Assembly (NCBI GenBank): GCA_964372875.1
Contig: CAYJTB010000001.1
Span: 27,860 to 91,859 of the forward strand
Length of the DNA: 64,000 bases
From: an uncultured bacterium
GTDB taxonomy: Bacteria; Omnitrophota; Omnitrophia; Omnitrophales; JACQLI01
Direction of reading: 5' to 3'
A program made the position numbers and the translations under genes. Positions 11,722 through 29,397 of the stretch are shown piece by piece. Position 1 is the first letter of the stretch. Each line of letters starts with the position of its first letter. A model generated the notes under the pieces. The model was not told the origin of the DNA. It made no database searches and saw only the letters and a program-made list of their open reading frames with translations.

Positions 11722-11744
11722 TTTATTTAAATTAAAAGAACTCC

Positions 11745-11877
11745 GTCATCCTGAATGAAGCGACACGTCTTCGAGTGCGGCAAAGCCGCGAAGCCGTGAG
11801 GATCTGCCTTGAGATTCTTTCCGCCAAAGGCGGGCCCGCCTCTGGCGGGCGGCCATAGCCCTCGGCCTCAGAATGAC
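11745..11877. repeat. MITE-like palindromic element, variant termini GTCATCCTGAA...CTCAGAATGAC, intergenic copy
   Basis: Terminal inverted repeats plus internal GC hairpins (GGCGGGCCCGCC...GGCGGGCGGCC); lies between the convergent stops of pdxA and the GT2 gene. Confidence 0.6.
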
Positions 11878-11884
11878 AGTTTGG

Positions 11885-13558: not shown

Positions 13559-15036
13559 GGAGAATCCTTGGAGGCCGCGGAGGCGGAAACCCAATCATCT
13601 ACCAACCGGGGAAGAATATTTGCCGGCTCGAAAAGCTGGATCCGTGACAATCGGCGGGTAAGGGGATCCGCAAAATAAACAAACCCCCGTCTTTCATCCA
13701 AAGCAATTTGAGGGACTCTTTTTGAAATTTGGAAGAGAGGAACCGCTTGGCCATTGCCTTCAAAATCCAACACCTTTACCCAGCCGCCTTCTACAAATAA
13801 AAGATAATTGTCATTGTAAAACCAAGTGAGATTAGAAATTTTTTGCTCTCCCTGATAAATTTTTCGGGGGGAAACGCCGGTTTGGAAAAATTCTTTTTCC
13901 GGTTCACGCTCAAAATCGACCAGCCAAAGTTCAGAATCTTTCCGGTAGACAGCCCGCCTGTTGAAAACGGCCGTGACCACTTCCTCCACTCTCTTGTCCA
14001 GGTAATAGGGAAGCCGGTTGGAAAAAAGCTTGCCTTGATCCGACAAGAAAAGAGCAAACGCCTCATGAAGCGGAGTGAAGATAAAAGGCCGGGAGAGAAA
14101 ATAGAAGGAATAGCGTTCCCCCTCGTCAGGACCGAAAATAAGGTGCGCCTTGGCGGCCGTGCCCAATAACGTTTTCCGGATTTCCCCTTTTTCAGTTAAT
14201 TCGAATAAACGTCTTCGGGCATCCATCACAAAAAGTTTGCGTCTGTCCGTGGTATAGCCCCGAATCCCGCCCTGCACATCAAAGAGAGGAAACCGTTCTT
14301 CAAAATCCATTTTTTTGAGGGTATCGCCTTGAAGATAAAAGAGTGCATTTTTTTGAGAGGGGCCCCAACGAAACTTATCGAAGGGTTCCTGGAGACTTCC
14401 AGCAAGCGGAGTCAGTTCCATGGGACTCAGGAATTTCACAAGAAAAGGACGAATGCCTTCTTTTTGTTTCATGAAGGCCACGGCCTTTTCGCCTAAGGGA
14501 TGCATCAGGACTTCTCCCACTGGGAAATCATATTCGCCTGAAAAATTGGGGAAAATAGGCTCGAGTTGATTTCGCTCAGGTTCAAAAAGATAGAGCCCGG
14601 AGACGTGATCGCCTTGAAGGACTACAAGTTTTCTTGTCTGTGCAGCGTGCCAGATTTTTGTGATGGGAAAATCCGTGAGCTTCTCCGAATCAAACTGAGT
14701 GGGGAAGAGCAAAATATTTTCAAAAGAAAGGACCTTATCGGCTTTGACCTCCACTTGTTTTTGCCAAGGATGCATTCCCGGCAGGCTCAAGTGAAGGTTA
14801 TAAAAACCGGATTTAAGATTACGAATGACGACAGGGGTGGTGTCTTTCAAGACCCGGTGATTGAGCTCAACCTGGGCTTGGGAGGGGTGTGAATTAAGGC
14901 TGATCAGGCCGGTGAGGAGAAGCTTGGAATGGCTGGGGCTGAAAATATAGCCCAAGGCATAGAGCACGGTCAAAGGTGCTATCACAAGGTAGGCTACGGT
15001 AAAAACCAAGAAGATTGCTTTACGTAAAATTCCCAT
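13555..15036 (-). CDS. membrane-anchored PEGA-domain protein, function unknown
   Basis: N-terminal TM helix, then PEGA-like beta-sandwich (AQVELNHRVLKDTTPVVIRNLKSGFYNLHLSLPGMHPWQKQVEV); translationally coupled to the GT2 gene. Confidence 0.6.
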   Translation of the reverse strand: MGILRKAIFLVFTVAYLVIAPLTVLYALGYIFSPSHSKLLLTGLISLNSHPSQAQVELNHRVLKDTTPVVIRNLKSGFYNLHLSLPGMHPWQKQVEVKADKVLSFENILLFPTQFDSEKLTDFPITKIWHAAQTRKLVVLQGDHVSGLYLFEPERNQLEPIFPNFSGEYDFPVGEVLMHPLGEKAVAFMKQKEGIRPFLVKFLSPMELTPLAGSLQEPFDKFRWGPSQKNALFYLQGDTLKKMDFEERFPLFDVQGGIRGYTTDRRKLFVMDARRRLFELTEKGEIRKTLLGTAAKAHLIFGPDEGERYSFYFLSRPFIFTPLHEAFALFLSDQGKLFSNRLPYYLDKRVEEVVTAVFNRRAVYRKDSELWLVDFEREPEKEFFQTGVSPRKIYQGEQKISNLTWFYNDNYLLFVEGGWVKVLDFEGNGQAVPLFQISKRVPQIALDERRGFVYFADPLTRRLSRIQLFEPANILPRLVDDWVSASAASKDSP

Positions 15037-15085
15037 GTTGTTCTAACTCCCTATTGGGCCTCATTTTATGCTACTTGGGGGTCAT

Positions 15086-15114
15086 TTGACAAGTTACGTT
15101 CCAGAGGGTATCTT
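15086..15114 (+). promoter_or_regulatory. candidate sigma-70 promoter for the giant ORF
   Basis: TTGACA, 17 nt spacer, TATCTT, about 200 nt upstream of ATG 15316 in a 280-nt divergent intergenic region. Confidence 0.35.
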
Positions 15115-15213
15115 TTGTTACAGTGAAAGAAACTCTTAAGTGAATGTTCCTAAGGGGTTAGCACCTCGACTCTATTGATTTTTTTGGGGTATGCTCGGTG
15201 CTATGGTGAGCGA

Positions 15214-15242
15214 GATTGAAATTGGCGGTGCCAATTTCAATC
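15214..15242. promoter_or_regulatory. 13-bp-stem perfect hairpin/palindrome in the giant-ORF leader
   Basis: GATTGAAATTGGC ggt GCCAATTTCAATC; could be an operator or an RNA hairpin. Confidence 0.5.
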
Positions 15243-15315
15243 GTGTCGAACCATTAGCAACAACTCCAGGGAATTTTTTTACTCTGTAATTCAGACCTTT
15301 AGGAAAGATTAAACT

Positions 15316-18300
15316 ATGACCCTACGCGCGAAAAATTTTTATCTACGCACTGTCGCAGCTTTCACCGCAATCATTTTTTGCTGGAATAGCCTTGCTTGGC
15401 CGCTTCCCGAGGTTGCGGTTCCCCAGGCCGGCAAAACTTTCGATCTCATTCCAAAAGAACTCGGAACCGTCGATGAATACGAACTGCCGGACGCTTCACA
15501 TTCCGCACCCTTTGTCATACATATTCAAGATCTCCACGCAGCACCCGAAGCTCAAGAAAAAATCCTGGACATTCTTAAATTTTTACATTCAAAAAAGAAA
15601 CTTCTCGTAGCGGTCGAAGGAGCCGCCGGAACGCTTCATCCTGAGTATTTAGATTTCTTTCCGCAATACCCGCGTGTCACAAACGCACTCGTTCAAGATT
15701 TGGTAAGTGAGAGCATGCTTACAGGGCCGGCGTTATTCGCATGGGAGAGGTATGAGAGTAAGCCGTCATTGCACCCGTCATTGCGAGGACGTAAGTCCGA
15801 AGCAATCTCAAATCCTAGATTGCTTCGTCGGGCCTTTGGCCCTCCTCACAATGACAATAGCGTCCAATTCATAGGCGTCGAGACGCCGCGTCTTTATCGC
15901 GAAAACCTTAAAGCCTATCGCGATTTTTTCCAGGATGAAGAAAAAAATCAGCAGGATTTGAAATCTTTCCAAACCTCATTGGAATCGGCCCAAACGAAGA
16001 TTTTCAATCCTGATTTGAGGAAATTTGTCCAAGAAGTCCAGAGACGTAAAGATGGAAAGTTTCAATCGGGAAAGGCCTCGCCCGATCTTGCGGCTTACAT
16101 TCGCTTTCTCGCGGATTCAAGCCGAGATCATTTGGGAGTTGATCTAAGAGATAAATTCGAACAGATCCGTTTTCCCAATCTAACCCGCATTCTTTTCTTG
16201 ATGGAATTCGAATCAAAAATCACTGCTCACCAGCGCCGGGTTCTGCATTCTGAAATTGAATCCAAAAAACTTTTTGATGAAATCACACTTCTCGAAACAA
16301 GACTGCGGCAAATACTGGTTAAAAAGCCGGAAGAAACAAAACTTCTTGAGATCCTTGATGATTTCAAGTTGCTTGAGAAGTTATTCCATTTGGAACTGAC
16401 TCGCGAGGAATATTACCAAGTCGTCAACAGGGTTTTGGAAATCAATCCGTCGAATTTACATCAGCGTTTGGCAACCATTGCTGAGATTGCTTCGACCTCG
16501 TCTGAAATGTTGTCTCGCAATGACGCCGATTACGAAACTGCTCTGCGTTTTTACCGCTTAGCCATTCGCAGAGACAAAGCCCTTCTTGAAAATGCCTTGC
16601 GAGAGGCAGCTAAAACGGAGAACTCGTCTCAAGAAAAACCACTCATCGTTCTTGTTACCGGCGGTTTTCACACTTCAGGGGTGAGCGAGCTTCTCAAAGA
16701 AAAGAAAATTCCTTACGCCGTCGTCACGCCTGCCTTAGCAAAAACCAAAGCCAATCAAGACCAATATCACAAACTGATGTCCGGCAAAATGTTCGCCAAA
16801 GAAGCCTCAAGCGCTTCGCCCAAGAATAACAATCTGGTGTGGGCGCAGATTCTTACAGCAAGAGATCGGTACCCGAGCCTCAATTCCGACGAGGATCAGC
16901 AAAAAATATTTTCCCACGCGACTGAAAAGTCCGGCGAGTATTTTCGAAAATTCTATCCCCAAATCTCCGAACCCAAACTGCAAGAACTTTTATCTCGCCC
17001 CGCCGGATTCTTTTCGCAAATCTCCCGTTCCGAATTGCAAAGTAGGAGCCAGATTACGAATTCGGCCATCGATGGCCGAATTGGCGGGAAAAGGGTACTG
17101 CCTTCACGTTTTCCGCGCTCGGAAGTGCGGGCGGTAGAACAGCGATTAGAAGTCAGTGGTCAGAAGACAGAAGGCTGGAGTTCAAAGATAGGAAAAATTA
17201 TCAGGAATGGCAGCGATTTTGGACTATCGAGGGTTTTCCAGCGTAGTCAGGCGAAGAATTATCGAATTCCAAGCCGCTTAGAAAAATCTCGAGGTGAAAG
17301 AATAGAAATCTCTTTAAAGGTTTTCATCGATAGCAGATCGTGGTCTCCTGTGACAATGATCGTTGCTTTAGCTGAAAGAGCGCATTCCAGCACGGCATCA
17401 TCGTCCGGGTCACGGCAGGCCTTTACCTTTGTTTTAGGTTTGACTATCAAAGCTTTCATATGGATCAATGAAATCATTTCTTCAAGCATTTCAGGCGTGA
17501 TCCATTTCTTGAGTTTAGGTTTTTCCAGTGAGCGAAGAAAGTCTTCCAGTAAGGCCGGAGATAAAGCCGCAATGAACTTGTCTTCTTCCAGGGATTCCAG
17601 AATCGAACGGCAAACGCCCGGAAAGGCGAGTCCGCTCACCAGCACATTCACATCAAGAACGACCCGACGCATACCGTTCCTGCCGGGCTTGCTTGACCAG
17701 ATTCAGAAGCTCTTTTCGGCTGAGAGGGTGTTTCTTTCGGCTTTTATCAACTTTGCGGGTCAGAGAACGGAAGCGTTCTCCCCAGGTCTTATGTTCAAGA
17801 CGACGGATCAGGGTAATGCGGTCACGGGATTTCAATTGATTGATCATGCGCTCAATTTGTTGAATGTCTACTTCCACGGCAATCTTAGGCATAGGATTTT
17901 ATCCTCCTCTTCGAATCAGTATAATTTATCGGCCTTGGCGGATCAAAATCAAAACATTTCTTCCGTTAAGCCTTCTAAGCAAAGTTCGACAGAACCGAGC
18001 CGAAGGGCCGCTTCCGGCCCCGAGAGCCGTCAGTCTCCGATCCTAAGCGTCGATAGACCCGGAGGGGCCCGTGGGGAGGTGCGGGCAAAAGAACAGAGGT
18101 CAGAAGTCAGAGAGCAGAGGATAGAGGTCATAAGTCAGAGATCAGAAGGAAAAATTACTTCGAGTGGCGGCGATTTTGGTAGCGTTCGATCAGGTACATC
18201 ACGCCCCAGGCAAGAAATATCAAAACCAAAACAAGAGACACGGTTATCACGTTTTATTTACCCCTTTTCCGAATCTCTTGGGCAAGCCATCCAAGAAATA

Positions 18301-21300
18301 AGAATCATGATGGCTACAATTATAGAGAGAACAGCCTTGGCCTTCAATGAAGTTTTCCAAATGTTTTCGCTCACCACGAGGGCTGCTAATACAAGGCTCA
18401 CCGCCCTCATGATCCCATCAGCAAACAAATTCCGTCTTTTAGATGGAAAAAGGGTTTTCATCTCAATGCTTCAAGCGCCGCAACCTAACACAGGATTAAT
18501 TTTAAGTCAAATATTATTTTTAGAATATGAAATATCCCGCCGCTCGGAGGTGCGGGAATACATCTCGGATTGGACGGTCTCGACCTTGGAAACGAAACAG
18601 CCGGTTTTGGCGGCGGCATTTTCAACGGACGGGAAGATTTTGGCCGCGGGCGCAAGAAACAACGTTCATCTGACCAACGGAGACCTTCGGAAATGGTCCG
18701 TGGAATTTAGGGCCCACCGCAACGAGATTGCAAAACTTATTTCTTTTCAAAGAGGAAACAGGAATTTTTTCGCCACAGCCAGCAGAATCGGCTCGATCAG
18801 CCTATGGAATTCAAACGGCGGGCTGATCCGGCGGCTGGAGCAGCTTAATCCGGAGGATTTCCAACCTGTGTTAGGGTTATCCGTTTCTAAAAATGGAGAT
18901 TGGCTGGCAGCCACGGACATGGATGTAATGAAGATCTACGATCTTACGGGAATGAGTTCCCCTAAAACAATTCCCATCACGGATCAAAGTCGCAATCATT
19001 TCGTTCAATTTTCTCCCGATGGGACGAGCATCGCCTCCACTTATTACGGCGAAATCCGAATCGAGGATATCAAAACCGGAAAACTCCGCGCGAACCTTCA
19101 TCACGAAGCTTCTCTTAAGAAGTCCATGGATACGTCAGCCTTGGCCTTTTCCAAAGGCGATGATGTCGCCGCGGCCTCCACCGACGGAAAAATCAGGATC
19201 TGGAGATGGAAAGGGGAAAGGCAGCCTCAGGTTTTAGATTTTTTGTCACCAGCCCGCGAAGCAAGCCACCTCATCTTTTCACCTAATGGAAAACGTCTCG
19301 CCGCGTCTACGGCAGATCAGATCGAAATATGGAAACTTAATGGAAAAGTGTGGCGTCATGAAGAAACAATCTATCCGCATCTGGACGCCGTGACAGAAAT
19401 TTTATTTTCACCGGATGCAAAACGGTTTATGGCCGCAGGCATTTGGCACGGAAGCGGGAGAGTCCGAATTTGGTCGAAGGAAACGCCGGCAAGGGCCGAA
19501 GTGCGGACCGACGGCATCCCGACAACCTGGTTCCGGATTTTTAACAGGCTGGATAACCTTAACCGGGAAGTGTGGAAACAAAAAGATTTAGACATCATTG
19601 ACCTGACCAACCAATTGGAGAAAAAACTCATCAGCTTATTCGGTTCGCAGCTCCTTTATGGAATCTGGACTTGGAATACTTCAGTTCGGGAAGTACGGTT
19701 TGGCCTTAGGTCGGGGCCTTTAAGTTTTGAATTGACTGCCAACCCGCATCAGGAAATCCCGGAAAGAGAAATTAAAAGGGGATACACGGTAACAATGAAT
19801 GCGATGCTTACTTCCGCTGCGGAAAGTCAGCATGCAAAAAAATGGGGAGACAGCGAACCGGAAGAAAGGGGAGAGACTTTGCTTGAAATTCCTATTGCAG
19901 AGATCGACCGCTCCCAACCTGTTATCTATTTCGGCAGTTTCTATTTTGATACCGACAAGGAAAAGAAAGAAACGATCATCAAACAGGAAATCCTTTTCCT
20001 TCCCGGAGAGGAGAGAAATTATCAAATCTATATTTGGCATAACAACGCCCTTGAAAAAACTACCTTAGAAAAAGAAGGCGGCAGGACCTACGCGGTATGG
20101 AGAACGCCGGAAGCCGAACCTTCCCTTTCGTTTCAATATGTGGCACTGCATGATGCCCAAGGCAAAGACCTGGGCGAAATAAGCCGGCTCATTCTGAAAG
20201 CCGGAAACTCGGAAACTTACAGGAACAACCTTCAATTTCTTTACGGTCCTATTTGGAGAGACGAAACGTCGAGTTTTTCTCATGGTAGCAGAACTTCCGT
20301 AAAACCATCGGTTTTTGAAGACCTTATCTCTGCTGCGCCGGGCAAAAGGATCGCTGCGCTGCTGGGTCTAGCGATTGAATATCAATATGTCCCGGAAGGC
20401 CAAGTATTCAGCCGGATGCTGCTTACCGAATTGGAAAAATTGGAGGGCCTGCCGTACGGACGAATCGCAGCGCTTCGAGAAATTGCGGAAATGAGTCCCG
20501 AGGAAGCCCATGAAAGATTTAAAGATCCCTACGACCAGCCCAGCGCGATCCCGGCCGTCATGACCCTCGTGGCCAGCCTCGCCCCGCGTCTCCTTGAAAG
20601 AATGAAAAATTGGGATCAGGAATTTTATGAAGAGCTAAAAGGGGTCCTGCAAAAACCGGATCTCAAAACTTTATTCGAGGAAGGGGAGGTCAAATTTTAT
20701 GAGGCGGATCATCTCTGGGCCGCTTCAGATAACCGATCTTTTTTCCCTGGTGTTGTCGCCTTTTCAAGGAGTAAAGACCGGCAAATCATCGTCCCAATCT
20801 ATTTCGGCAACGAACCGAAAGATGAAGACGGCAAAGTCTGGTTTAAAATCTTGGACGCCACATCGCTTGGAATCGAGAATTCAAATGCCGCCACTTACCA
20901 AGTCTACGACCACATGCTCGGGGAATTTTATAAAACACTTCATTCAGGGGAAAAACTTTATCGAGAGGGTTGGAGCATCGGCATTCCGGTCGTCCCGGGA
21001 AAGCTGGACCGGGCCGGGTTTATCCAAAAGGGACGGCATGTTCAATTTTTGGAAATGCGAAGGACCCAATCTCTAACGACGGCGACCCGGATCGGCTTGC
21101 CGGAAAATCTTGTCAAGACACAAGGGATTCTTACGGATCTTTTGAGAGAAATGAGTAAACTCGAAATTTATTTTTTTATCAGTAAGACCGGTGCAACCGA
21201 TCGGCGCATGGTGCCTGTGGATAACGTTTATGAATTTTTTTCATCCTATGCGGGGAAAAAAGGCGAGCATTGGAATGAAATCGTAAGTGAGCCCCTTCAA

Positions 21301-24300
21301 TTGACCGTGAGCTCTCCGGGTTTTAAGCGCCAGACGCTTCGGCATGCGCTTCGGATGATGCAGGAAGCGCTTCAACTTACTTATTCTTTCCCCGGCACTT
21401 TGAAAGGAAATGACCCCCACCTTTCTTTTTATCACGATAAATTAATCGAAGAGACCCAACTTTTAAAAACATCGGATCAAACCGGAAAGTGGGCCCATGT
21501 CGAATTCGAAATCGCAAGCAGCCATTTTGAAATGCCGGATCATTGGGATCAGCCCGCCGAAAATTCGCTGCGTCAAAGAATTCAGGCGTTGCGCGAGGCA
21601 TTAGAAATTCCCTTTGTCCTTATGTTAAAAGCACCTTCCGGCGCCAAGGATCCTTATCACATCGAGCCGGTGGGAAACCTTCACCAGCGGCTTCCTTATT
21701 TTGTTCTCAAAGATGATTTCTTGAAAAATCCTCACGATCCGCGTTTTCCCTATTTTTCAAAAGGCGCTCAACTCAGTTTCGGACTTGAAGCACCCATGGA
21801 TTCGGCAAGATTGGAACAAGTTAGAAATATTCTGGTTGCAAGTCTTGAAGGCCGGATGTCGGCAGCTACCCTTAAGCGTGCCATTGAAGTGACGATGCAT
21901 CAGTGGCAAAGAGAAGACTCCTTCTTTTCCGAATCCCGCTCCGAGGCACGCCGTGTGCCTCGAACGCTTGCGGTGCACCCGGTGCGGTTGGCACCGGGTA
22001 CTCCGCTATACCCGGACCGGTCGGGTCCGGGTGTTGCGGTGCAGAGTCATTGGAACTCTGCCCGTTCAGAAGTTCGAACGGAGAAGTCAGAACGTCTAAC
22101 TCGTTCCAATGCAGGCGAATTACTCAAACCGCGCAGATACCTCAAGAATAAAATCTACGGAATTGGGCGCATTACCGCTGTGGAAGGAAAATTCGGGGGA
22201 AAAGATCCTCAAGGCTCCGTCGAGGTCGCTTTTTTAAATAAACACGGATTCGAAGAAACGAAAGAATTTTCCACCTGGTCACTTTTTCAATTGCCGGAGC
22301 AAAATCCCGAAGAAGCTTTCTTTTCCGTTACCAGGCAAGAAATCGAAGATTTCAAGAATCAAAAAAGACAAGGTCAAGCAGCTTATAAAGAAGAAATAGA
22401 TAAAAAACGCATAGCCCAACGGGAGGGCAGGCAATGGATGGAAGCACAAAGCCCCACATTTTCTCTCTACGATTCGCCTTTCAGCGCAAGAGCCGGAAGG
22501 CCCCTGGCCGCAGATTATAGAAAATTGATGCAAGGAATCCAAGACCGGGCACAGGGCGAGTATCACTTGGGCAGCGCCTCCATCGTGGAACGAAAAATTT
22601 TGTTTGAAATGCTGGGCACTCGCCTGATCCCTAAGACGAACCAATCGGAAACCACCCTTCGGATCAACTTAGGCCGGAGAAAAAAGGAATTCGCAGAGAA
22701 ATTGAAAACGATTTTAGATGAAACGGGCGGGCTAAGCGCCCGGGCCGTGAGCGAGGCGGAAGAGAAAATCATGTCTCCCAAAGATAAGTCCCGTGCGCTT
22801 TCAAGCGAATGGCTGAAATTCCGGGATCCTGTTACCGGTAAATTTGCGACCGAAAAAGATATCAAACGCTGGATCCAGAATGCCATTCCGATCGTTGAAA
22901 GAATCTTAGAATATGAAGTAAAACTTCTCAAATTAGAAAAACAAATTCAAATTCATCCGCGGCCTCTTGCGCGATCCGAAGTAAGGGCCGCTGAAAGTTC
23001 TCCCACAAAGAAGGTCGCATTTTTTAACCTCAGGACCGCGGACGATTCATCCATTGTTTTGCCGCAAAGGATGTCCTATCTTCCCGTCGAGCAGCGGTTG
23101 CCTGACTATAGCGCCTGGCGGATTCGAGTGGGAAGGGAATCGGGAAATTTGCACGCATTTTTGAGAGATGTCCTTGGCCCACGCTGGCATTGGAATGTCA
23201 AAGGAGAAACTAAGGCTTATTTTCTTTATAAAAGTCTCCCGAAGAAATTCAAACAATTTATTGGTAAACGCAAACCGCCGACAGGTTTTGATATGGAAGC
23301 GCTTGGACTTTTGGTGGTTAATCGAAGCGACATTTTTTACATTCCGATGGAAGAAACTGTGAATGAATCCGTGGTAACGGTGTTAGACAAAAATGACCGG
23401 GACGCGATCAATGAATTTATAAGCCATCATGCAATGATCCAAACGGTGCCGCAGAATATCCGGATCTTTCCTCCCGTTCGATATGAGAGCGTCAAGTTTG
23501 GATTGGGAGAGGATCCCGTGTCGAGTCCCAAGCCCGGCTCCATCGAAGTTGTTTATCACCCCAGGCTCATGGTCAATGATCTTGGCAAGGCAGATAAAGA
23601 AATTATTTTCGAAACCAGTTTCGACTTAACACAATTAAGGCCCCGGAAAAAGATTACGGCTGAACTTGAGGGAAGATTCTATCAAGAGTTAAAGTCCAGG
23701 CTGCGCAATACTTGGCAGATCCGCATAGGCAACCGGACCGTGGAAATGCCTCGGGCAAAAGATTTGCCGGCTAAAGTTCAAGACGTGGAAGAAATTTTGT
23801 TGCCGGGGAATAACCGTAAAACGGCGTCTTTACATTTCAATGATGCGGTTTCGTTCTATCTCGACGGAATTTTGATGCGCTCCAATGTGCCTGTACCCAA
23901 GGATATTCACGCCTGGATTTTTTGGAAAACACGGATTCGTTTTAACGATCAGGAAATCTCGGTTGAAACGACCGAAGGCAACAATGTATTAACTTATCGA
24001 ACAGATGAAACCGGTGAACATCTGCGGGTCAATGGCGAACCGACAGACAATAGTGTTTTGCAAAACATGATTCGTCAGATGGGCTCCGCTTTTTCAATCT
24101 TGGCCTTTCAGATGGCGCGCGATCCCGAACAAACGGATTATCTTCGCGAATCCGGCAAAGAAACGATTGATGATGAATTCGACCAATGGCTCGGCCGTTC
24201 TGAGGTGCGGGAAGAAGGACAGCCTGCACAAAATGGGAATGGCCACGCTATCCAGAAAAAGCAAAGAGGCCGCGGGTTCAGGACTAAAGAAGAAGCCTTG

Positions 24301-27300
24301 CAAGCCCTTGCCGAAAGACAGGCAAAAGGTCTTTCCAGTGATCCAAAATCCCTTCAAAGGCATTTAGCCGAAGGCGGCAACCCTACTTTGCTCACCTTCA
24401 TTTATCGATGGAATCAAAAGCACCCGGAAGAACCCATTGAAATGAAATTGTTGCCTACCCGAACCCACAAGTACGAATCCAAAGGAGAAATTATTGAAGC
24501 GCTGGAAAAAAGGCGGCTGGAAAAAGGAGAATCAGCCAATTATCGAATGCAATTACGCCTTCATATAGAAGAAGGCGGCGATCGTACATTGTATCAAGCG
24601 GTTCTGCGTTGGAATCATGATCATCCAGAGGATTTGATCAATCTTCCTTTGGATCCCCATGTGGCGCATGGTCAATTGGGAAAATACCAGACCAAACAAG
24701 ACGGCTTGAATACTTTGAGTGAAAGGAAAAAACAAGGTCTGGGAAATTCAACCAGCGATCTCAGGCAAACTAAATCGGATGGGGGGGATTGGCCTCTTCT
24801 TGTTTTTATTCGCCATTGGAATAAGAAGCATCCGAAGGATCGCATTGCGCTGGAGAATGCTGACCAAAACTTCAACCGCCTGAGTCCTGTTGCGGTCTGG
24901 CATTCCCAGACGCAGGATTTCAAGACGACCGATCAAAAAAGAACCGAATGGTGGCGGGCCTTGCAGGAAGAGGCGGATCACGAAGCTGGAAAAAGGCTGG
25001 TCGAGTCTTTTATTCCTTCAGTCAATGAGATTGCCCAAAGGTTAAGCGGGGGGAGAGATTCGCATTATGAAGCGGATTTAATCCAAAACGGAAATATGAT
25101 TGTCCTTGAGACGATCTATCCCGAGCGTAAAGAAGACCAGTGGAATCCGAGCCGCGGGGTTTCCATGACCGAATTTGTCGAGACCCGTTTAAAGAAAGAG
25201 ATGAGGCACCGGACATTGCAAGAGATACGTTCCAGCGGGAGATTTTCCATCGACGAGCCCTACCGTTTTTCCAAAGGCAGAGAAAAGGAATGGCAGGTTC
25301 CCAGTTATGACGCCCAACCGCAGGAAGTCCGAATTAACAACTTGGCTGATGAGAGGGACAAGCAATCGGGCCTTCCCGTGATTTTGTTTGAGGAAAAACA
25401 TCAAATCGCCCGCGAGATCGGAAAATGGTTAATCAAAAAAGGTTTTCTTAAACAGGTCAAGCAGGAAGGGATTCAGAACCTTGCCGTTTCAATGATCGGA
25501 AGCCTGGGAGTGCTCGGATCGGCAGTCAGAGATAAAAGCGATCTTAATTTGATGGTTGTTACCGACGCAAATGAGTCGCAGGCTGAAGCCCTCGCAGAAA
25601 AACTTGCGCAGTGGATCGGGGGCCGATATCACGAGCCGCAGGATTCGGAGCCTATCCGCATCTCCGTAGGAAAAGAAGGTGATTATGAGCAAGCCATAGC
25701 AGACGGAAACGGCTTCATTAGCTTACTTCAAAAACACAAGGTGGGCACAGACCCCATCAAAGGAATTGCAAGCGTTGAAGTGATTGGAATTCCCGACGAA
25801 GACAACTCGTTTTCCGAAGACTCTCTTACCCGGCAAAAAACGCGGGCGGCTTTTCACCTGGCCTTCCAAGATCCCCGGTTAGCCGAGCAGGCAATCAATG
25901 GGATCCTTGTCCTTGAAAATGCCAAGGGGGCCGCAGAGCGTCTTGCCCAAAAATTGCCGAGCGATCAGGAAAACCTTTTCGGTTATTATGAAAAATTTCT
26001 TGCCAAACAAGCCGCCAATCTTCGCAAGTTGCAGGAATCTTCCATTGACTCAAAAGCAAGGGCCGAGGTGCACCCGAATCCGACCGATTCGGGTACTCCT
26101 CAGTCCTCGCCCGATCAGGCGAGGGCCGAGGTGCGTTCTTCTTTGCCGGAGCAACGGGCGGAAAAGAAGTTAGAAACAAGAAAGTTGGAAATTGGAGCAG
26201 GAATCAGCGGGCTTAGCGGCCGCGTTGAAACATCTAATGGGCGTGTTTTTTCCGGAAGTGATCGATTGCCAATAAAGTCAACGAGATCGCCGCAAAAATC
26301 AGAATGGCAAGGACAGCCGTCATTTAGTCTTCCTCCTTTGAGGAGCTTGCCGCAAAAATCAAGCCCAAATAAAAGCATATCACGAGTCCTCCTAGAACGA
26401 CAAGCCGCCATTTCAGGGAGAGTTTTAGGAAAAGCTCTCCTCCCAGAACTCCTGCTAATAGGACCAAAATCACATGCTGAAACAACTTTGCCAGCCAGTC
26501 CCTCCGGGCCGTTGTCAGGAATATACTTTTCACAAAATAAAATATATAGCAATATCAATTCAGAGTTAAGCGATTTTTCCCGCTCCGATGGTTCGACAAG
26601 CTCACCATCGGTCCTGAGCAAGGCCGAAGGCCGCGTCGAACGCGCCGAGGTGCACCCGAATCCGACCGATTCGGGTACTCCTCCGCACTCACGCCCAACC
26701 GGCGTGAGTACTGAGGTGTCCCTGGCGGCGCCGCCAGGGGCTCCTCCGTCCTCGCCTGAACGGGCGAGGGCCGAGGTGCGGGCAAGCGTTGAAGAAATAA
26801 TCAGGAAGCAGATGCTTTCTGGAGATCTGAAGGCCTTTGAAAAGAATTTCGAATCTTACGACCGTGAAAAGGCCTTTGAACTTTTAAATAGCATTTCGAA
26901 AATTGCCAAGGAAATTTCAGAAAGGATCCGCAAAGGAGAAGAAGAACTGATGGTAGCTGCAAACAATGGCCAAAAAATGCAAGAAATCATTGACGCGGCT
27001 AAAATCTTGGAAAATTTCCCAAATGATAAACAAATACATGGTGTCCACCTATCAGCTATTATAAATTTACAGGAAATCTTCAATCTTACACCAAAAGCAT
27101 TGCCAAGATATCGCAATCTCTTAGAAGCTATTGTTAAACACGCGTCAAAAAAAGAACAACCTCACCAGGCAGCAGCTGAAATTATCGAGAGCTTTGAAGG
27201 AGAACAGCACGCTGATTCCCAACAAGATCAATTTCAAAGGAACGAAGCACTGGAATTTTTAACCCTAGATCTGGATGAAAAAGTTTTTAAAGAAACAGTA

Positions 27301-28719
27301 ATAAAAAATCATTTTCTGACCGCGCTTCATCATTTCATTTGGGAACACAGCGACTTTGAAGATGCGAAGAATTTAGCCAGAGAACTCGGTAACTTGAGCC
27401 TAATCAGTTCTTTGTTGGGTGAGCCCCTCAGTAAAAGACAGGCCGCTTTTTATAAGCGCGCACTTTTGAGCTCTGACCGCACGCAGCAGAAGATCGCGCT
27501 TGGCTTCTTCGAGACTTTCCCTGATCTTGAAAAAATGGACTGGAAAGAGGAAGTCGTTGGTAAACTTAAAGAAATCGTAATGGATGAATCCGAAGATTCT
27601 GAATTTAGAAAATATGCCTTTGAAGCGTTGACAAACAATATTCTTCTTATAGAGCCAGCCTTTTTGGCGCCTTATTTTAAAGAGCCGCGCAGCCAACGGT
27701 TTCGAATCATTTCTTCGGATAAAAAAGGCGCTCGGATTTTATTTTCGGTTCTTCAGAAGAAATTTGGGTCGCCTTTAAAGGACCCGCCCCTTTTTAAAAA
27801 AAGTTCCGAGTCCATCATTTTATCAGGAGAATTTACGACAGGTCTGAGAAATGCTGCCATGTTGATCCGATTTGTAAGGCAGGCCTACGGCCGGGAGATA
27901 TCCTTTGATGAGTCCCGCGGCTTGCTTAAAGAGATGAAAAAGAAACAAGACAGATCCCGGCGTTCCGAAATACGGAGTGAAAGCTTGGATTCGACGTGGG
28001 AGTTGAGGGAGGATGCGAACAAAGGAAAGCTTGCGGAACTTGGAAAACAATTTGCGCCGATGATTGAGAGTCTTTGGAAACGCTCCGAGGTCAGGCACAG
28101 GCTTGCGACGGACGGATTTTTGAATCTTTCAAAGCTGATTGAAATTCCCAAAGCCGAAGCGGCTGAACCTGCGATTGTAGCTGCGCTTTTGATCCGTGCA
28201 GAACAATCCCAAACCGGAACGCCGGCTTTGGACAAACATTTGCAAGTGTGGCAGTCGCGCATGGGAATCAGTTCGGTTGCTAAAGAAAATGAAGTCGTAA
28301 TCCTCTTAGAAGGTGCGGCGTTTAAACTCGGACTCTTGGCTGCGATCGACGGAATTAGCCCGGCAGCTCCGAAGATCGGCGTTGTGGCGCCCAAGGCTTA
28401 CCATTCTTTAGTGGAAGAAGTCAGAAGCGGTCTTAGAACCGGGCAAGAACTGATCGAAGGGGAGAAGCTTCCCGAAATTTTAAATCAAATTGCTCAGATG
28501 AAACAGAAGCCAAGCCGCTTAACGATTTGGGCTTCGAAGGAAGACTCGTTCTTAACAGCAGCGTTCATCAAACGTTTTCTTAAAGATCCAAACCTGAATG
28601 TAGAAGTAAAGACCGTGACGCAGCGCGATCTTGACCGCGCCAACGCGTCTCACCCCGGCTTTGCGGAACGTATCAAGAACTTCCTCGCCGCCGTCAAATC
28701 CCTCAGCATTTCCGCTTAA
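15316..28719 (+). CDS. giant modular ORF, 4,467 codons, function unknown
   Basis: Single uninterrupted frame; AGGAAAG RBS; N-terminal TM helix; protein-like composition in most modules; junction peptide conserved with synonymous codon variation. Caveat: three segments look non-coding on this strand. Confidence 0.7.
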   Translation: MTLRAKNFYLRTVAAFTAIIFCWNSLAWPLPEVAVPQAGKTFDLIPKELGTVDEYELPDASHSAPFVIHIQDLHAAPEAQEKILDILKFLHSKKKLLVAVEGAAGTLHPEYLDFFPQYPRVTNALVQDLVSESMLTGPALFAWERYESKPSLHPSLRGRKSEAISNPRLLRRAFGPPHNDNSVQFIGVETPRLYRENLKAYRDFFQDEEKNQQDLKSFQTSLESAQTKIFNPDLRKFVQEVQRRKDGKFQSGKASPDLAAYIRFLADSSRDHLGVDLRDKFEQIRFPNLTRILFLMEFESKITAHQRRVLHSEIESKKLFDEITLLETRLRQILVKKPEETKLLEILDDFKLLEKLFHLELTREEYYQVVNRVLEINPSNLHQRLATIAEIASTSSEMLSRNDADYETALRFYRLAIRRDKALLENALREAAKTENSSQEKPLIVLVTGGFHTSGVSELLKEKKIPYAVVTPALAKTKANQDQYHKLMSGKMFAKEASSASPKNNNLVWAQILTARDRYPSLNSDEDQQKIFSHATEKSGEYFRKFYPQISEPKLQELLSRPAGFFSQISRSELQSRSQITNSAIDGRIGGKRVLPSRFPRSEVRAVEQRLEVSGQKTEGWSSKIGKIIRNGSDFGLSRVFQRSQAKNYRIPSRLEKSRGERIEISLKVFIDSRSWSPVTMIVALAERAHSSTASSSGSRQAFTFVLGLTIKAFIWINEIISSSISGVIHFLSLGFSSERRKSSSKAGDKAAMNLSSSRDSRIERQTPGKASPLTSTFTSRTTRRIPFLPGLLDQIQKLFSAERVFLSAFINFAGQRTEAFSPGLMFKTTDQGNAVTGFQLIDHALNLLNVYFHGNLRHRILSSSSNQYNLSALADQNQNISSVKPSKQSSTEPSRRAASGPESRQSPILSVDRPGGARGEVRAKEQRSEVREQRIEVISQRSEGKITSSGGDFGSVRSGTSRPRQEISKPKQETRLSRFIYPFSESLGQAIQEIRIMMATIIERTALAFNEVFQMFSLTTRAANTRLTALMIPSANKFRLLDGKRVFISMLQAPQPNTGLILSQILFLEYEISRRSEVREYISDWTVSTLETKQPVLAAAFSTDGKILAAGARNNVHLTNGDLRKWSVEFRAHRNEIAKLISFQRGNRNFFATASRIGSISLWNSNGGLIRRLEQLNPEDFQPVLGLSVSKNGDWLAATDMDVMKIYDLTGMSSPKTIPITDQSRNHFVQFSPDGTSIASTYYGEIRIEDIKTGKLRANLHHEASLKKSMDTSALAFSKGDDVAAASTDGKIRIWRWKGERQPQVLDFLSPAREASHLIFSPNGKRLAASTADQIEIWKLNGKVWRHEETIYPHLDAVTEILFSPDAKRFMAAGIWHGSGRVRIWSKETPARAEVRTDGIPTTWFRIFNRLDNLNREVWKQKDLDIIDLTNQLEKKLISLFGSQLLYGIWTWNTSVREVRFGLRSGPLSFELTANPHQEIPEREIKRGYTVTMNAMLTSAAESQHAKKWGDSEPEERGETLLEIPIAEIDRSQPVIYFGSFYFDTDKEKKETIIKQEILFLPGEERNYQIYIWHNNALEKTTLEKEGGRTYAVWRTPEAEPSLSFQYVALHDAQGKDLGEISRLILKAGNSETYRNNLQFLYGPIWRDETSSFSHGSRTSVKPSVFEDLISAAPGKRIAALLGLAIEYQYVPEGQVFSRMLLTELEKLEGLPYGRIAALREIAEMSPEEAHERFKDPYDQPSAIPAVMTLVASLAPRLLERMKNWDQEFYEELKGVLQKPDLKTLFEEGEVKFYEADHLWAASDNRSFFPGVVAFSRSKDRQIIVPIYFGNEPKDEDGKVWFKILDATSLGIENSNAATYQVYDHMLGEFYKTLHSGEKLYREGWSIGIPVVPGKLDRAGFIQKGRHVQFLEMRRTQSLTTATRIGLPENLVKTQGILTDLLREMSKLEIYFFISKTGATDRRMVPVDNVYEFFSSYAGKKGEHWNEIVSEPLQLTVSSPGFKRQTLRHALRMMQEALQLTYSFPGTLKGNDPHLSFYHDKLIEETQLLKTSDQTGKWAHVEFEIASSHFEMPDHWDQPAENSLRQRIQALREALEIPFVLMLKAPSGAKDPYHIEPVGNLHQRLPYFVLKDDFLKNPHDPRFPYFSKGAQLSFGLEAPMDSARLEQVRNILVASLEGRMSAATLKRAIEVTMHQWQREDSFFSESRSEARRVPRTLAVHPVRLAPGTPLYPDRSGPGVAVQSHWNSARSEVRTEKSERLTRSNAGELLKPRRYLKNKIYGIGRITAVEGKFGGKDPQGSVEVAFLNKHGFEETKEFSTWSLFQLPEQNPEEAFFSVTRQEIEDFKNQKRQGQAAYKEEIDKKRIAQREGRQWMEAQSPTFSLYDSPFSARAGRPLAADYRKLMQGIQDRAQGEYHLGSASIVERKILFEMLGTRLIPKTNQSETTLRINLGRRKKEFAEKLKTILDETGGLSARAVSEAEEKIMSPKDKSRALSSEWLKFRDPVTGKFATEKDIKRWIQNAIPIVERILEYEVKLLKLEKQIQIHPRPLARSEVRAAESSPTKKVAFFNLRTADDSSIVLPQRMSYLPVEQRLPDYSAWRIRVGRESGNLHAFLRDVLGPRWHWNVKGETKAYFLYKSLPKKFKQFIGKRKPPTGFDMEALGLLVVNRSDIFYIPMEETVNESVVTVLDKNDRDAINEFISHHAMIQTVPQNIRIFPPVRYESVKFGLGEDPVSSPKPGSIEVVYHPRLMVNDLGKADKEIIFETSFDLTQLRPRKKITAELEGRFYQELKSRLRNTWQIRIGNRTVEMPRAKDLPAKVQDVEEILLPGNNRKTASLHFNDAVSFYLDGILMRSNVPVPKDIHAWIFWKTRIRFNDQEISVETTEGNNVLTYRTDETGEHLRVNGEPTDNSVLQNMIRQMGSAFSILAFQMARDPEQTDYLRESGKETIDDEFDQWLGRSEVREEGQPAQNGNGHAIQKKQRGRGFRTKEEALQALAERQAKGLSSDPKSLQRHLAEGGNPTLLTFIYRWNQKHPEEPIEMKLLPTRTHKYESKGEIIEALEKRRLEKGESANYRMQLRLHIEEGGDRTLYQAVLRWNHDHPEDLINLPLDPHVAHGQLGKYQTKQDGLNTLSERKKQGLGNSTSDLRQTKSDGGDWPLLVFIRHWNKKHPKDRIALENADQNFNRLSPVAVWHSQTQDFKTTDQKRTEWWRALQEEADHEAGKRLVESFIPSVNEIAQRLSGGRDSHYEADLIQNGNMIVLETIYPERKEDQWNPSRGVSMTEFVETRLKKEMRHRTLQEIRSSGRFSIDEPYRFSKGREKEWQVPSYDAQPQEVRINNLADERDKQSGLPVILFEEKHQIAREIGKWLIKKGFLKQVKQEGIQNLAVSMIGSLGVLGSAVRDKSDLNLMVVTDANESQAEALAEKLAQWIGGRYHEPQDSEPIRISVGKEGDYEQAIADGNGFISLLQKHKVGTDPIKGIASVEVIGIPDEDNSFSEDSLTRQKTRAAFHLAFQDPRLAEQAINGILVLENAKGAAERLAQKLPSDQENLFGYYEKFLAKQAANLRKLQESSIDSKARAEVHPNPTDSGTPQSSPDQARAEVRSSLPEQRAEKKLETRKLEIGAGISGLSGRVETSNGRVFSGSDRLPIKSTRSPQKSEWQGQPSFSLPPLRSLPQKSSPNKSISRVLLERQAAISGRVLGKALLPELLLIGPKSHAETTLPASPSGPLSGIYFSQNKIYSNINSELSDFSRSDGSTSSPSVLSKAEGRVERAEVHPNPTDSGTPPHSRPTGVSTEVSLAAPPGAPPSSPERARAEVRASVEEIIRKQMLSGDLKAFEKNFESYDREKAFELLNSISKIAKEISERIRKGEEELMVAANNGQKMQEIIDAAKILENFPNDKQIHGVHLSAIINLQEIFNLTPKALPRYRNLLEAIVKHASKKEQPHQAAAEIIESFEGEQHADSQQDQFQRNEALEFLTLDLDEKVFKETVIKNHFLTALHHFIWEHSDFEDAKNLARELGNLSLISSLLGEPLSKRQAAFYKRALLSSDRTQQKIALGFFETFPDLEKMDWKEEVVGKLKEIVMDESEDSEFRKYAFEALTNNILLIEPAFLAPYFKEPRSQRFRIISSDKKGARILFSVLQKKFGSPLKDPPLFKKSSESIILSGEFTTGLRNAAMLIRFVRQAYGREISFDESRGLLKEMKKKQDRSRRSEIRSESLDSTWELREDANKGKLAELGKQFAPMIESLWKRSEVRHRLATDGFLNLSKLIEIPKAEAAEPAIVAALLIRAEQSQTGTPALDKHLQVWQSRMGISSVAKENEVVILLEGAAFKLGLLAAIDGISPAAPKIGVVAPKAYHSLVEEVRSGLRTGQELIEGEKLPEILNQIAQMKQKPSRLTIWASKEDSFLTAAFIKRFLKDPNLNVEVKTVTQRDLDRANASHPGFAERIKNFLAAVKSLSISA
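15765..15855. mobile_element. MITE-like element inserted in-frame in the giant ORF
   Basis: GTCATTGCACCC GTCATTGCGAGG...AAGCAATC..GATTGCTTCG...CCTCACAATGAC; translated SLRGRKSEAISNPRLLRRAFGPPHND. Confidence 0.6.
16475..16524. repeat. possible degenerate/short copy of the same MITE family
   Basis: CCATTGCTGAGATTGCTTCG...TCTCGCAATGAC, translated ...MLSRND; left terminus is weak. Confidence 0.3.
17059..17082. repeat. 24-bp perfect palindrome
   Basis: AATTCGGCCATC|GATGGCCGAATT, 34 nt upstream of the first RSEVR junction. Confidence 0.9.
17259..17672 (-). CDS. PIN-domain ribonuclease toxin (PIN_3/VapC-like)
   Basis: VVLDVNVLVSGL..., CRDPDDDAVLECALSAKATIIVTGDHDLL: acidic PIN residues in the canonical order; 20-nt overlap with the upstream small gene. 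Confidence 0.9.
   Translation of the reverse strand: MRRVVLDVNVLVSGLAFPGVCRSILESLEEDKFIAALSPALLEDFLRSLEKPKLKKWITPEMLEEMISLIHMKALIVKPKTKVKACRDPDDDAVLECALSAKATIIVTGDHDLLSMKTFKEISILSPRDFSKRLGIR
17653..17892 (-). CDS. putative antitoxin of the PIN toxin
   Basis: 79-aa basic protein directly upstream of and overlapping the PIN gene; strong RBS; family not recognised. Confidence 0.6.
   Translation of the reverse strand: MPKIAVEVDIQQIERMINQLKSRDRITLIRRLEHKTWGERFRSLTRKVDKSRKKHPLSRKELLNLVKQARQERYASGRS
18070..18556 (-). mobile_element. antisense cassette 2: junction, 3'-flank repeat, small membrane protein
   Basis: Same build as cassette 1; bounded by junctions at 18070 and 18541; minus-strand TTGACT -35-like box upstream of ATG 18461. 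Confidence 0.4.
18258..18461 (-). CDS. small two-TM membrane protein (paralog of 26324..26533)
   Basis: 67 aa with two hydrophobic helices. Shares MK(T/S)(L/I)F...RR..(F/L)A...LVL.A.V...SLK pattern with the other cassette protein. Confidence 0.5.
   Translation of the reverse strand: MKTLFPSKRRNLFADGIMRAVSLVLAALVVSENIWKTSLKAKAVLSIIVAIMILISWMACPRDSEKG
18556..19491 (+). other. WD40-type beta-propeller module of the giant ORF
   Basis: Repeated units such as FSTDGKILAAG, ATASRIGSISLWN, FSPDGTSIAS, ASTDGKIRIWRW, FSPNGKRLAAS..IEIWK, FSPDAKRFMAAG..RVRIWS. Confidence 0.8.
21937..22080. repeat. in-ORF array of GC-rich hairpins at a module junction (copy a)
   Basis: CGAGGCAC/GTGCCTCG; CCCGGTGC/GCACCGGG; ACCCGGACC/GGTCCGGGT; CAGAGT/ACTCTG; CCGTTC/GAACGG; flanked by RSEAR and RSEVR codons. 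Confidence 0.65.
24274..24857 (+). repeat. three tandem ~65-aa protein repeats inside the giant ORF
   Basis: GFRTKEEALQALAERQAKGL...GGNPTLLTFIYRWNQKHPEEPI / KYESKGEIIEALEKRRLEKG...GGDRTLYQAVLRWNHDHPEDLI / KYQTKQDGLNTLSERKKQGL...GGDWPLLVFIRHWNKKHPKDRI. Confidence 0.6.
25060..25230 (+). other. sigma-70 region-2-like stretch in the giant ORF
   Basis: EADLIQNGNMIVLETIYPERKEDQWNPSRGVSMTEFVETRLKKEM resembles DLIQEGNIGLMKAV..FDP.RG..FSTYA.WWIR. Confidence 0.35.
25483..25575 (+). other. nucleotidyltransferase (Pol-beta/MNT-like) motif in the giant ORF
   Basis: SMIGSLGVLGSAVRDKSDLNLMVVTD matches the G-S-x(n)-G...D-x-D minimal NTase pattern. Confidence 0.45.
26059..26136. repeat. in-ORF hairpin element (copy b)
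   Basis: AGGGCCGAGGTGCAC CCGAATC cgacc GATTCGG GTACTCCT...CCTCGCC cgatca GGCGAGG GCCGAGGTGCGT; 39 bp (26062-26100) are repeated perfectly at 26644-26682. Confidence 0.7.
26324..26533 (-). CDS. small two-TM membrane protein (paralog of 18258..18461)
   Basis: 69 aa, GTG start, two hydrophobic helices, acidic C-terminus (SSSKEED); A/T-rich TATATT box upstream on the minus strand. Confidence 0.5.
   Translation of the reverse strand: MKSIFLTTARRDWLAKLFQHVILVLLAGVLGGELFLKLSLKWRLVVLGGLVICFYLGLIFAASSSKEED
26641..26781. repeat. in-ORF hairpin element (copy c, expanded to four hairpins)
   Basis: CCCGAATC/GATTCGGG; ACTCACGCC/GGCGTGAGT; CCCTGGCGG/CCGCCAGGG; CCTCGCC/GGCGAGG. Confidence 0.7.
26782..27960 (+). 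other. alpha-helical (HEAT/ARM-like) module of the giant ORF
   Basis: Helix-rich composition with a recurrent ~40-aa helical periodicity; judged by eye only. Confidence 0.3.
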
Positions 28720-28737
28720 TCTTGTTTCAAACCACGT

Positions 28738-28766
28738 TTGACAAACATGCCAAATTGTATTACACT
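28738..28766 (+). promoter_or_regulatory. candidate sigma-70 promoter of vapBC
   Basis: TTGACA, 17 nt spacer, TACACT; ACGGAGG RBS precedes ATG 28808. Confidence 0.5.
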
Positions 28767-28807
28767 TTACCGATCGATAAGTTAATCGTATGACAACGGA
28801 GGCTTGA

Positions 28808-29391: not shown

Positions 29392-29397
29392 GATTCC

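Follow-up and report, generated by a model that had tools for sequence, protein, structure and literature searches.

Stop-free antisense gene cassettes nested in a giant modular open reading frame of an uncultured Omnitrophota bacterium

A 64,000-nucleotide (nt) stretch of the genome of an uncultured bacterium of the Omnitrophota (contig CAYJTB010000001.1 of assembly GCA_964372875.1, forward-strand positions 27,860 to 91,859; hereafter the window) contains a giant, modular open reading frame (ORF) on the + strand (15316..28719) that encodes 4467 amino acids (aa) and runs without a stop codon over 13.4 kb at a G+C content (GC) of about 47%. Nested within this host ORF, on the opposite strand, are small genes: a PIN-domain toxin with its antitoxin, a 67-aa gene (TM67) and a probable gene of 69 aa (TM69), the last two with putative membrane proteins as their products. 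The arrangement – cassettes that are antisense to a giant ORF and leave its frame free of stops – recurs in at least nine related uncultured lineages, of which those with a name are Omnitrophota; it is conserved and apparently undescribed, being a case of antisense nested genes within a class of giant ORFs that is known but little understood. We regard it as likely that the host ORF is read through the stop-free antisense cassettes and that selection on the passengers is imposed by the host frame. The observations that carry this reading are the open frame, its conservation across lineages, biases in the composition and codon context of the passengers, the enrichment of a short junction motif and the constraint on the PIN frame.

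According to this explanation the 13.4-kb ORF would be a genuine gene that is translated and belongs to a very large family of giant ORFs, made up of successive modules, each the size of a protein, which the short junction motif joins; the named close relatives are Omnitrophota. Three modules in the window would carry opposite-strand gene cassettes in place of host protein, and ribosomes would read through these cassettes to reach the host modules downstream. A cassette could then persist on two conditions: that it is antisense, since in sense orientation the host ORF would be terminated by the stops of the cassette genes, and that it creates no stop in the host frame. Selection would be expected at two levels: the PIN clade would lose most of its Tyr, Gln and His, with Phe, Lys and Arg as replacements; and safe synonymous codons would be chosen before risky ones, the antitoxin would do without TTA, CTA and TCA, and spacers would be kept free of stops. 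The peptide that the host frame specifies over a cassette would presumably be without function.

If this is correct, complete and ancient cassettes nested antisense in a translated gene would be conserved over multiple lineages, and the composition and codon choice of the passengers would be shaped by the reading frame of the host: a clean example of selection on two strands. The sequence would also argue, independently, that each giant ORF of the Omnitrophota is read through as one frame, while the junction motif would supply concrete candidate processing points and make the question 'one protein or many?' testable. Public data are systematically mis-annotated at such loci, in that gene callers split the host ORF or miss the passengers.

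Passenger modules and the host reading frame

Codon usage along the host frame (codon starts at positions congruent to 1 modulo 3) was scored with a training set made up of the genes flanking the giant ORF. The score is coding-like along the whole ORF except over 17116-18540 and 26059-26766, where it is close to zero; over the PIN gene it is the minus-strand frame that is coding-like. The first of these stretches comprises two passenger modules. Module 1 (17116..18069) is a toxin-antitoxin (TA) cassette flanked by two copies of the junction motif, RSEVR (17116-17130) and RGEVR (18070-18084). Its PIN-domain toxin gene (17259..17672, minus strand) encodes 137 aa in codons set one base off the host frame, so placed that the wobble positions of both strands coincide. 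The protein matches PIN_3 (PF13470; 65.8 bits, cut-off 27) and TIGR00305 (84.9 bits, cut-off 29.15), and D6, E42, D87, D90 and D109, which we take to be the catalytic residues of the PIN domain, are invariant in 19 close-clade PIN sequences. By sequence the gene belongs with the type II toxins of the PIN_3/TIGR00305 kind (VapC-like), with toxicity and neutralisation by the antitoxin predicted.

The antitoxin gene (17653..17892, minus strand; 79 aa) overlaps the PIN gene by 20 nt and lies codon-aligned antisense to the host frame. Its ATG is preceded by a GAGGAGG Shine-Dalgarno (SD) sequence and, further upstream, by a promoter-like site, TTGATC-17-TATACT (17918..17946, minus strand), which is a consensus match only. 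Against the VapB15 family (NF047401) the protein scores 28.4 bits, below the cut-off of 80 and so a distant resemblance only. An antitoxin of this type (56-69% identity over 74-80 aa) adjoins PIN in 11 of 12 loci checked: there is none at L084, and contig L116 ends just upstream of the PIN gene. Module 2 (18070..18540), bounded by RGEVR (18070) and RSEVR (18541), contains TM67 (18258..18461, minus strand), a 67-aa gene in the offset frame with two hydrophobic stretches recognised by eye.

An earlier note on this DNA had claimed that the passenger proteins lack the residues that would create stops in the host frame. Its coordinates and frame arithmetic hold (PIN and TM67 offset by one base, antitoxin aligned), and the stop rules, re-derived by hand, are those it gave: in the offset frame a host stop arises opposite TAN after NNY or CAN after NNT, and in the aligned frame opposite TTA, CTA or TCA. 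The compositions are likewise as described, with no Tyr, no Gln and two His in the PIN protein and none of the three residues in TM67. For the antitoxin the absence of TTA, CTA and TCA and the count of six Ser (TCC 1, TCT 2, AGC 2, TCG 1) were reproduced, but there are eight Leu (TTG 1, CTG 4, CTT 2, CTC 1) rather than about nine.

Over 17116-18540 the host frame has no stop in 475 codons, where about 19 are expected and where the other two + frames contain 28 and 23. When the 587 nt outside the passenger genes were shuffled, a mean of 11 stops resulted and none of 20,000 shuffles was free of them. Antisense stop rates per codon, obtained from 40 other genes of the window (GC 47% background), are 0.027 in the aligned, 0.042 in the offset and 0.052 in the third frame. 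The codon usage of the genome, which the note had named as a possible refutation, does not make stops unlikely: at 0.042 per codon about 5.7 are expected over the PIN gene. Taken gene by gene stop avoidance is weak, and the lack of Tyr, Gln and His in TM67 is not significant alone; it is the complete region and the comparison across lineages that give significance.

Module 3 (26059..26766), where the host frame is again non-coding-like, lies some distance downstream, with the motifs RAEVH/RAEVR at 26059, 26122, 26641 and 26767. It holds TM69 (26324..26533, minus strand), a probable gene of 69 aa with two hydrophobic stretches (by eye), read in the third antisense frame; it has a GTG start without a clear SD, its status as a gene is uncertain, and no homologue was found. 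The TM69 protein contains Gln, His and Tyr. These residues are harmless in its frame, where the risk contexts are NTT, NTC or NCT before A, and it is these contexts that TM69 avoids: under synonymous resampling 4.9 stops are expected in the host frame and the probability of none is 0.0012. Such frame-specific avoidance is what the hypothesis of the earlier note predicts. Hairpin clusters flank the module at 26056-26136 (two hairpins, z -3.8) and 26638-26782 (four hairpins, -95.5 kcal/mol, z -7.6); in the host frame they are read as RAEVHPNPTDSGTP..., and they may be insulators or terminators for the antisense gene. That TM67 and TM69 could be toxins of type I TA systems is a lead, for which size and hydrophobicity alone fit; the host mRNA would by necessity be antisense to both genes.

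The PIN clade in other lineages

The close clade of the PIN protein comprises 18 sequences from a protein search (62-84% identity; one from an Omnitrophica metagenome-assembled genome), each with one to four Tyr, Gln and His in total, plus the L004 protein from a genome scan (57% identity). Distant PIN_3 homologues (101 sequences, identity of 45% or less) contain on average 4.4 Tyr plus Gln and 6.4 Tyr, Gln and His, and only 2% have neither Tyr nor Gln: the free-standing homologues are thus not free of these residues, as they might have been were the composition a general property of the family. Expressed as frequencies, Tyr, Gln and His make up 1.6% of residues in the close clade, 4.7% in the distant homologues and 8.5% genome-wide (close versus distant: Mann-Whitney p=1.6e-9, uncorrected for phylogeny). 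Alignment columns with Phe/Tyr or Gln in the distant homologues have Phe, Lys or Arg in the close clade.

DNA of the close clade was recovered for ten lineages, and in 10/10 the antisense frame is free of stops over the PIN gene. In nine of the ten the open frame extends as far as the contig ends or belongs to a long ORF. The open frame measures 3423 nt in L003 (the whole contig), 4881 nt in L004 (running off the contig) and 2103 nt in L111, and takes up entire contigs in L112 (2484 nt), L113 (1851 nt; L113-116), L118 (1380 nt), L119 (1323 nt) and L120 (1236 nt); the ninth lineage is that of the window. At the 101 distant PIN loci the same frame has a mean of 3.35 stops and is stop-free in 3%, and in 0/31 of those with GC<0.52.

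Of the wobble columns, 95% are variable among seven of the close lineages; the open frame is therefore not simply inherited sequence. The risk contexts that remain in these seven lineages are neutralised by codon choice in 22 of 22 cases. The Ile before the invariant His71 is encoded by ATC in 7/7 (the genome uses ATT for 49%), the Asp before H/Q111 by GAC in 4/4 (genome share of GAT 62%), and the codon before Tyr ends in a purine in 5/5. The proposal that the passengers have adapted to the host frame is supported by the clade-wide depletion, by codon context and by the open frames, but the effect at the level of amino acids is smaller than the earlier note implied. The adaptation is old and clade-wide and not confined to the window.

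Both products of the shared DNA can be compared on one codon alignment: identity is 0.61 in the PIN frame and 0.51 in the host frame, and the mean BLOSUM62 score at substituted sites is +0.39 and -0.72, respectively. Because the PIN frame is the better conserved, sequence comparison indicates that PIN is the constrained protein and the host-frame peptide a filler that needs only to stay open.

The TA module is bounded by motifs in the same way in L003, L004, L111, L112, L113-116, L118, L119 and L120. One motif directly follows the stop codon of PIN (in the window a direct repeat of about 105 nt stands in between), and the other lies 40-60 codons beyond the antitoxin start, past the promoter region of the cassette. 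The repeat is present in two copies in the window, 3' of the PIN gene (17121..17222) and 3' of TM67 (18075-18179) in the passenger sense; it represents families D1, D6 and D11 (76-82% identity), contains CTGACYT-like heptamer repeats, and gave no stable fold in a folding calculation. The modules flanking the cassette differ between lineages, and L118 and L120 have closely related cassettes in different contexts: the cassette has therefore moved among giant ORFs.

Homologues of TM67 are found antisense in two further giant ORFs, in L117 (7537..7770, in an ORF of 6186 aa) and in L001 (7816..8016, in an ORF of 4552 aa), each between copies of the motif. The L117 module, between RPEVR (7415) and RAELR (7874), is the sole stretch of its ORF with a low host-frame coding score. 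The host-frame peptide of the TM67 module is 54% identical to residues 2427-2551 of the protein P0136. In L003 three consecutive passenger modules occupy 1.7 kb: at 1005-1906 two more antisense passengers adjoin the TA cassette, each in a motif-bounded module of its own. By eye, one encodes an 89-aa coiled-coil-like protein and the other a 71-aa hydrophobic protein resembling TM67.

Junction motifs and alternative explanations

The junction motifs of the host ORF (+ strand, 15 nt each) start at 17116, 18070, 18541 (RSEVR, 18541..18555), 19492, 21937 (RSEAR), 22063, 22972, 24196, 26059, 26122, 26641, 26767, 27961 and 28081; the ORF contains 12 matches to R[SA]E[VIMAL]R, or 15 when near variants (RGEVR, RAEVH) are included. 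The motif is written with varying synonymous codons, among them all six for Arg and five for Ser (AGT included), as in CGA TCC GAA GTA AGG and CGT TCA GAA GTT CGA, and this points to selection on the peptide. In 145 members of the giant-ORF family the motif occurs 657 times, that is 1.58 per 1000 aa against 0.020 expected (about 78-fold), with a median spacing of 252 aa. Its flanks show a preference for small residues and nothing else, giving the family-wide form small-R-[S/A]-E-[V/L/A/M]-R-small, in which position 4 is Val in 33%, Leu in 21%, Ala in 15% and Met in 12%. Modules of the family include PGM/PMM, sigma-70 region 2, receiver and WD40 domains; in P0178 the motif recurs every 147 aa with one response-regulator receiver domain in each interval. 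The motif sits precisely at domain boundaries and is a candidate processing site. Its persistence through synonymous change, its enrichment and its placement indicate that selection acts on the host ORF at the level of protein. A fourth codon acting as start, or GGAGGTG acting as an internal SD sequence, was rejected as a general explanation because of the variants GAA-GTT, GAA-GTA, GAA-ATA and GAA-GCG and the family-wide V/L/A/M at position 4; the small stems near the motif were attributed to its two CGN Arg codons.

The domain that defines the family, seg1 (15316..16800, + strand), begins with a transmembrane or signal helix (aa 2-27), followed by a hydrolase fold like that of EreA/ChaN/TIKI/TraB. 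A seg1 profile built with homologues finds 9,239 cluster representatives, many of which run to thousands of residues; the best 145 of these are 500-7244 aa long, and in almost all of the 145 the best match starts within the first 60 or so residues (exceptions at 98 and 124). Searches with seg1 gave no Pfam or NCBIfam match (E<=0.01) and no sequence match in the PDB; the sole informative search was by fold, and it showed a fold shared with the EreA/ChaN/TIKI/TraB superfamily. H74, E101, E189, R419 and GGFH452 of seg1 are invariant in 150 members and may correspond to the catalytic His/Glu/Arg/His set of the superfamily (GxxH ... E ... R ... GxxH). At the other end of the host ORF, seg14 (28081..28716, + strand) is a C-terminal module kept at the C-termini of other family members (33-41% identity to the ends of P0175, P0173, P0131, P0126 and P0139).

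Because the cassettes lie between inter-module motifs and the family has a hydrolase-like N-terminal domain, the motifs could conceivably be processing sites that also release the filler peptide, an idea that we nevertheless hold to be more doubtful than probable. A fuller scheme, which we offer as speculation and consider rather unlikely, is that of a bacterial polyprotein: unrelated proteins, as many as an operon might encode, would be made as one chain and cut at R-S-E-V-R, perhaps by the TIKI/EreA-like domain. Antisense cassettes (TA systems, small membrane proteins) would have become mobile stop-free elements that live in such ORFs as additional modules, with the filler excised at the flanking junctions in the manner of an intron, but at the level of protein. 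Under this scheme the host mRNA, by necessity antisense to every passenger, could also link expression of the toxin to that of the giant gene through transcription.

Several points weigh against read-through as set out above, and against its extension to cleavage. Under synonymous resampling the probability of finding no stop is 0.11 for PIN, 0.10 for the antitoxin and 0.46 for TM67. PIN_3 proteins are poor in Tyr, Gln and His beforehand, and the effect of amino-acid change alone is modest (0.99 expected stops against 1.85, given the codon usage of this genome). Because the lineages are related, they do not count as fully separate observations. We infer translation of the host ORF across the cassettes from the absence of stops and from motif conservation; cleavage at the motif, perhaps by the N-terminal TIKI/EreA-like domain, is putative and the weaker of the two claims, as is a protease activity for seg1, which matches no Pfam model. 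The host-frame filler peptide of the TA module corresponds to no called protein among 5.8 billion: gene callers therefore evidently never annotate the read-through of this module. The DNA of the motif has a codon bias, relative to the genome, towards CGC-KCC-GAG-GTG-CGG (GTG in 19 of 23 Val codons; GCC; CGG), and a role as nucleic acid is possible for that reason. The L083/L084/L085 lineage, finally, lacks an intact host ORF at its TA operon, yet the antisense frame over the operon (678 nt) is open; an open frame can thus persist after embedding has ended, or might be a property of the clade itself.

The codon bias bears on an improbable alternative, namely that the motif works as DNA or RNA, whether in recombination, in internal ribosome binding (GGAGGTG) or as a GTG or ATG start, and that the modules are expressed separately, the open frame serving only to avoid polarity and not to yield a single polypeptide. 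GAGGT is present in 9 of the 14 window motifs, in which GTG, GCC and CGG are over-used; an ORF in L083 begins at the M of RSEMR; and some motifs lie within hairpins. Set against this are the use of six Arg and five Ser codons, the occurrence of GAA GTT, GAA GTA, GAA ATA and GAA GCG, which provide neither SD nor start, and a fourth position (V/L/A/M) of the sort expected where a hydrophobic or small residue is required, not a start codon. Even under this alternative the need for a stop-free passenger would remain.

The L083/L084/L085 lineage bears on another, quite improbable, alternative: that the open antisense frame is a property of the TA clade itself, serving the cassette as a third protein or in its own regulation, and that giant ORFs merely tolerate it. 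In L083 (858-1538) and L085 (1944-2489) the frame is open precisely over antitoxin and PIN (a 216-aa ORF) and closes just outside, and the depletion of Tyr, Gln and His is clade-wide. But the antisense peptide is less conservative in its substitutions than PIN (BLOSUM62 -0.72 against +0.39) and scores as non-coding; and the spacers and unrelated passengers (TM67, TM69 and the 89-aa gene of L003) are stop-free in their respective host frames. Moreover, RSEMR remnants flank the L083 operon in shifted frames, with other TA-like genes nearby, and suggest a decayed host ORF: either the host ORF has decayed in L083-85, or the cassette was relocated together with its junctions.

It is very unlikely that the minus-strand genes are relics and that the host-frame peptide is a functional product overprinted on an old TA locus. 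The host frame is open, and its peptide recognisably similar across lineages, as such a reading would have it; the acidic signature residues of PIN, on the other hand, are all kept, HMM (hidden Markov model) scores are well above the cut-offs in every lineage, and the overlap of antitoxin and toxin has been preserved, as have the SD sequence and the promoter-like site. It is the PIN frame, not the host frame, in which substitutions are conservative, and the codon score of the host frame is about zero there. Finally, an artefactual shadow ORF – the frame being open as a by-product of base composition or codon usage, with the giant ORF no gene at this point – is almost certainly not the explanation, for although antisense stop-free runs reach 188-195 codons in ordinary genes of the window and antisense open spans reach 2.3 kb at high-GC distant loci, GC here is 47%, some 19 stops are expected in the 475 codons and none is observed (23-28 in the other + frames), the whole ORF has 4467 codons, the frame is open in 10/10 lineages despite saturated wobble sites, and none of the 31 low-GC control loci is stop-free.

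Known systems and further features of the window

Giant 'multi-enzyme' proteins of Omnitrophota, encoded by ORFs that are tiled by unrelated Pfam domains (PGM/PMM, response-regulator receivers and WD40 among them) and usually membrane-anchored, are described in two preprints, both of which raise the idea that the proteins are cut into smaller products (West-Roberts et al. 2023, bioRxiv 10.1101/2023.11.21.568195; Nielsen & Lui 2026, bioRxiv 10.64898/2026.06.07.730766). West-Roberts et al. note a lack of information on where cleavage would occur (10.1101/2023.11.21.568195). The host ORF of the window is a smaller member of this kind, and the modules of its family match the 'multi-enzyme' class of the 2026 preprint (10.64898/2026.06.07.730766). 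Term searches of the two preprints, together with section 8 of the later one, revealed no junction motif, no shared EreA/TIKI-like N-terminal domain and no antisense genes inside ORFs, and searches of the literature on nested antisense TA genes in giant ORFs, on RSEVR/RAEVR and on bacterial polyproteins brought up no account of the arrangement.

Overlapping antisense gene pairs reportedly include overprinted genes in E. coli O157:H7 and dmdR1/adm in Streptomyces. The passengers share with these the use of two coding frames on opposite strands, including the frame in which wobble positions coincide. The E. coli and Streptomyces pairs consist of a young, short ORF in an older gene, with both products presumed functional; here, by contrast, the embedded genes are old and mobile, the antitoxin is preceded by promoter-like and SD-like sequences, and it is the embedded genes that carry the adaptation while the host frame is filler. 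In Bacillus subtilis comS is nested in the giant srfA gene for a non-ribosomal peptide synthetase, on the same strand, out of frame and overlapping functional host coding sequence. As with comS, a small independent gene is carried in a giant multi-module ORF without interrupting it; unlike comS, the passengers are antisense cassettes in modules of their own.

Rickettsia palindromic elements are non-coding insertions of about 100-150 bp, and inteins splice themselves out of their host proteins. Passengers resemble both in that the insertion keeps the host ORF open and is translated along with it, but differ in encoding proteins on the other strand and in having no splicing domain. TA cassettes also occur in chromosomal integron arrays such as the Vibrio superintegron. 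As in those arrays, the TA cassette is a discrete unit among heterogeneous ones with a repeated boundary element on each side, and by analogy a role in stabilising the array is possible. The boundaries here differ in being a peptide motif with synonymous variation, and a single ORF unites all the modules; neither a boundary resembling attC nor, among the scanned neighbours, an integrase was seen (no dedicated attC or intI search was made). Viral polyproteins provide a last comparison: like them, the host ORF joins unrelated modules by a short conserved motif without conservation in the flanks and has a candidate hydrolase at the N-terminus; unlike them, it is located on a cellular chromosome, and cleavage is putative.

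The giant ORF lies, together with two minus-strand genes (a GT2 glycosyltransferase and a PEGA-domain protein), between pdxA and ksgA (rsmA) at 10672-30312. In many bacteria pdxA and ksgA are neighbours in a surA-pdxA-ksgA cluster, and for this reason the interval looks like a 17.7-kb insertion. The five genes on each side of the giant ORF have housekeeping or cell-envelope functions. Exact-sequence look-ups for the PIN protein and the giant ORF product returned no record, and a search of 15000-29500 against Rfam at permissive thresholds returned no RNA family. Within the host ORF, seg8 (24196-26058) contains three repeats of about 67 aa with the signature W-N-x-x-H-P-x-[D/E] and weakly matches sigma-70 regions and an Arm DNA-binding domain (E about 1e-3). 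In L001 (1-13102) the 4552-aa giant ORF is in tandem with a second seg1-family gene (P0004, 1033 aa); a sense-strand pair between them, encoding 90 aa and a 92-aa HTH_3 protein, looks like a TA system, and lies between ORFs and not inside one.

An 80-nt palindromic element (15777-15856) lies in frame within seg1 and has the sequence GTCATTGCGAGG...CCTCACAATGAC, read in the host frame as SLRGRKSEAISNPRLLRRAFGPPHNDN; its DNA fold has an energy of -24 kcal/mol (z -4.0). It is missing from the homologues P0001 and P0003-P0005, and P0002 has a short insert, HPERSEGSP, at this place. The element is of the kind represented by Rickettsia palindromic elements and inteins, and is another kind of stop-free selfish insertion within the giant ORF; similar in-frame inserts are present in L004.

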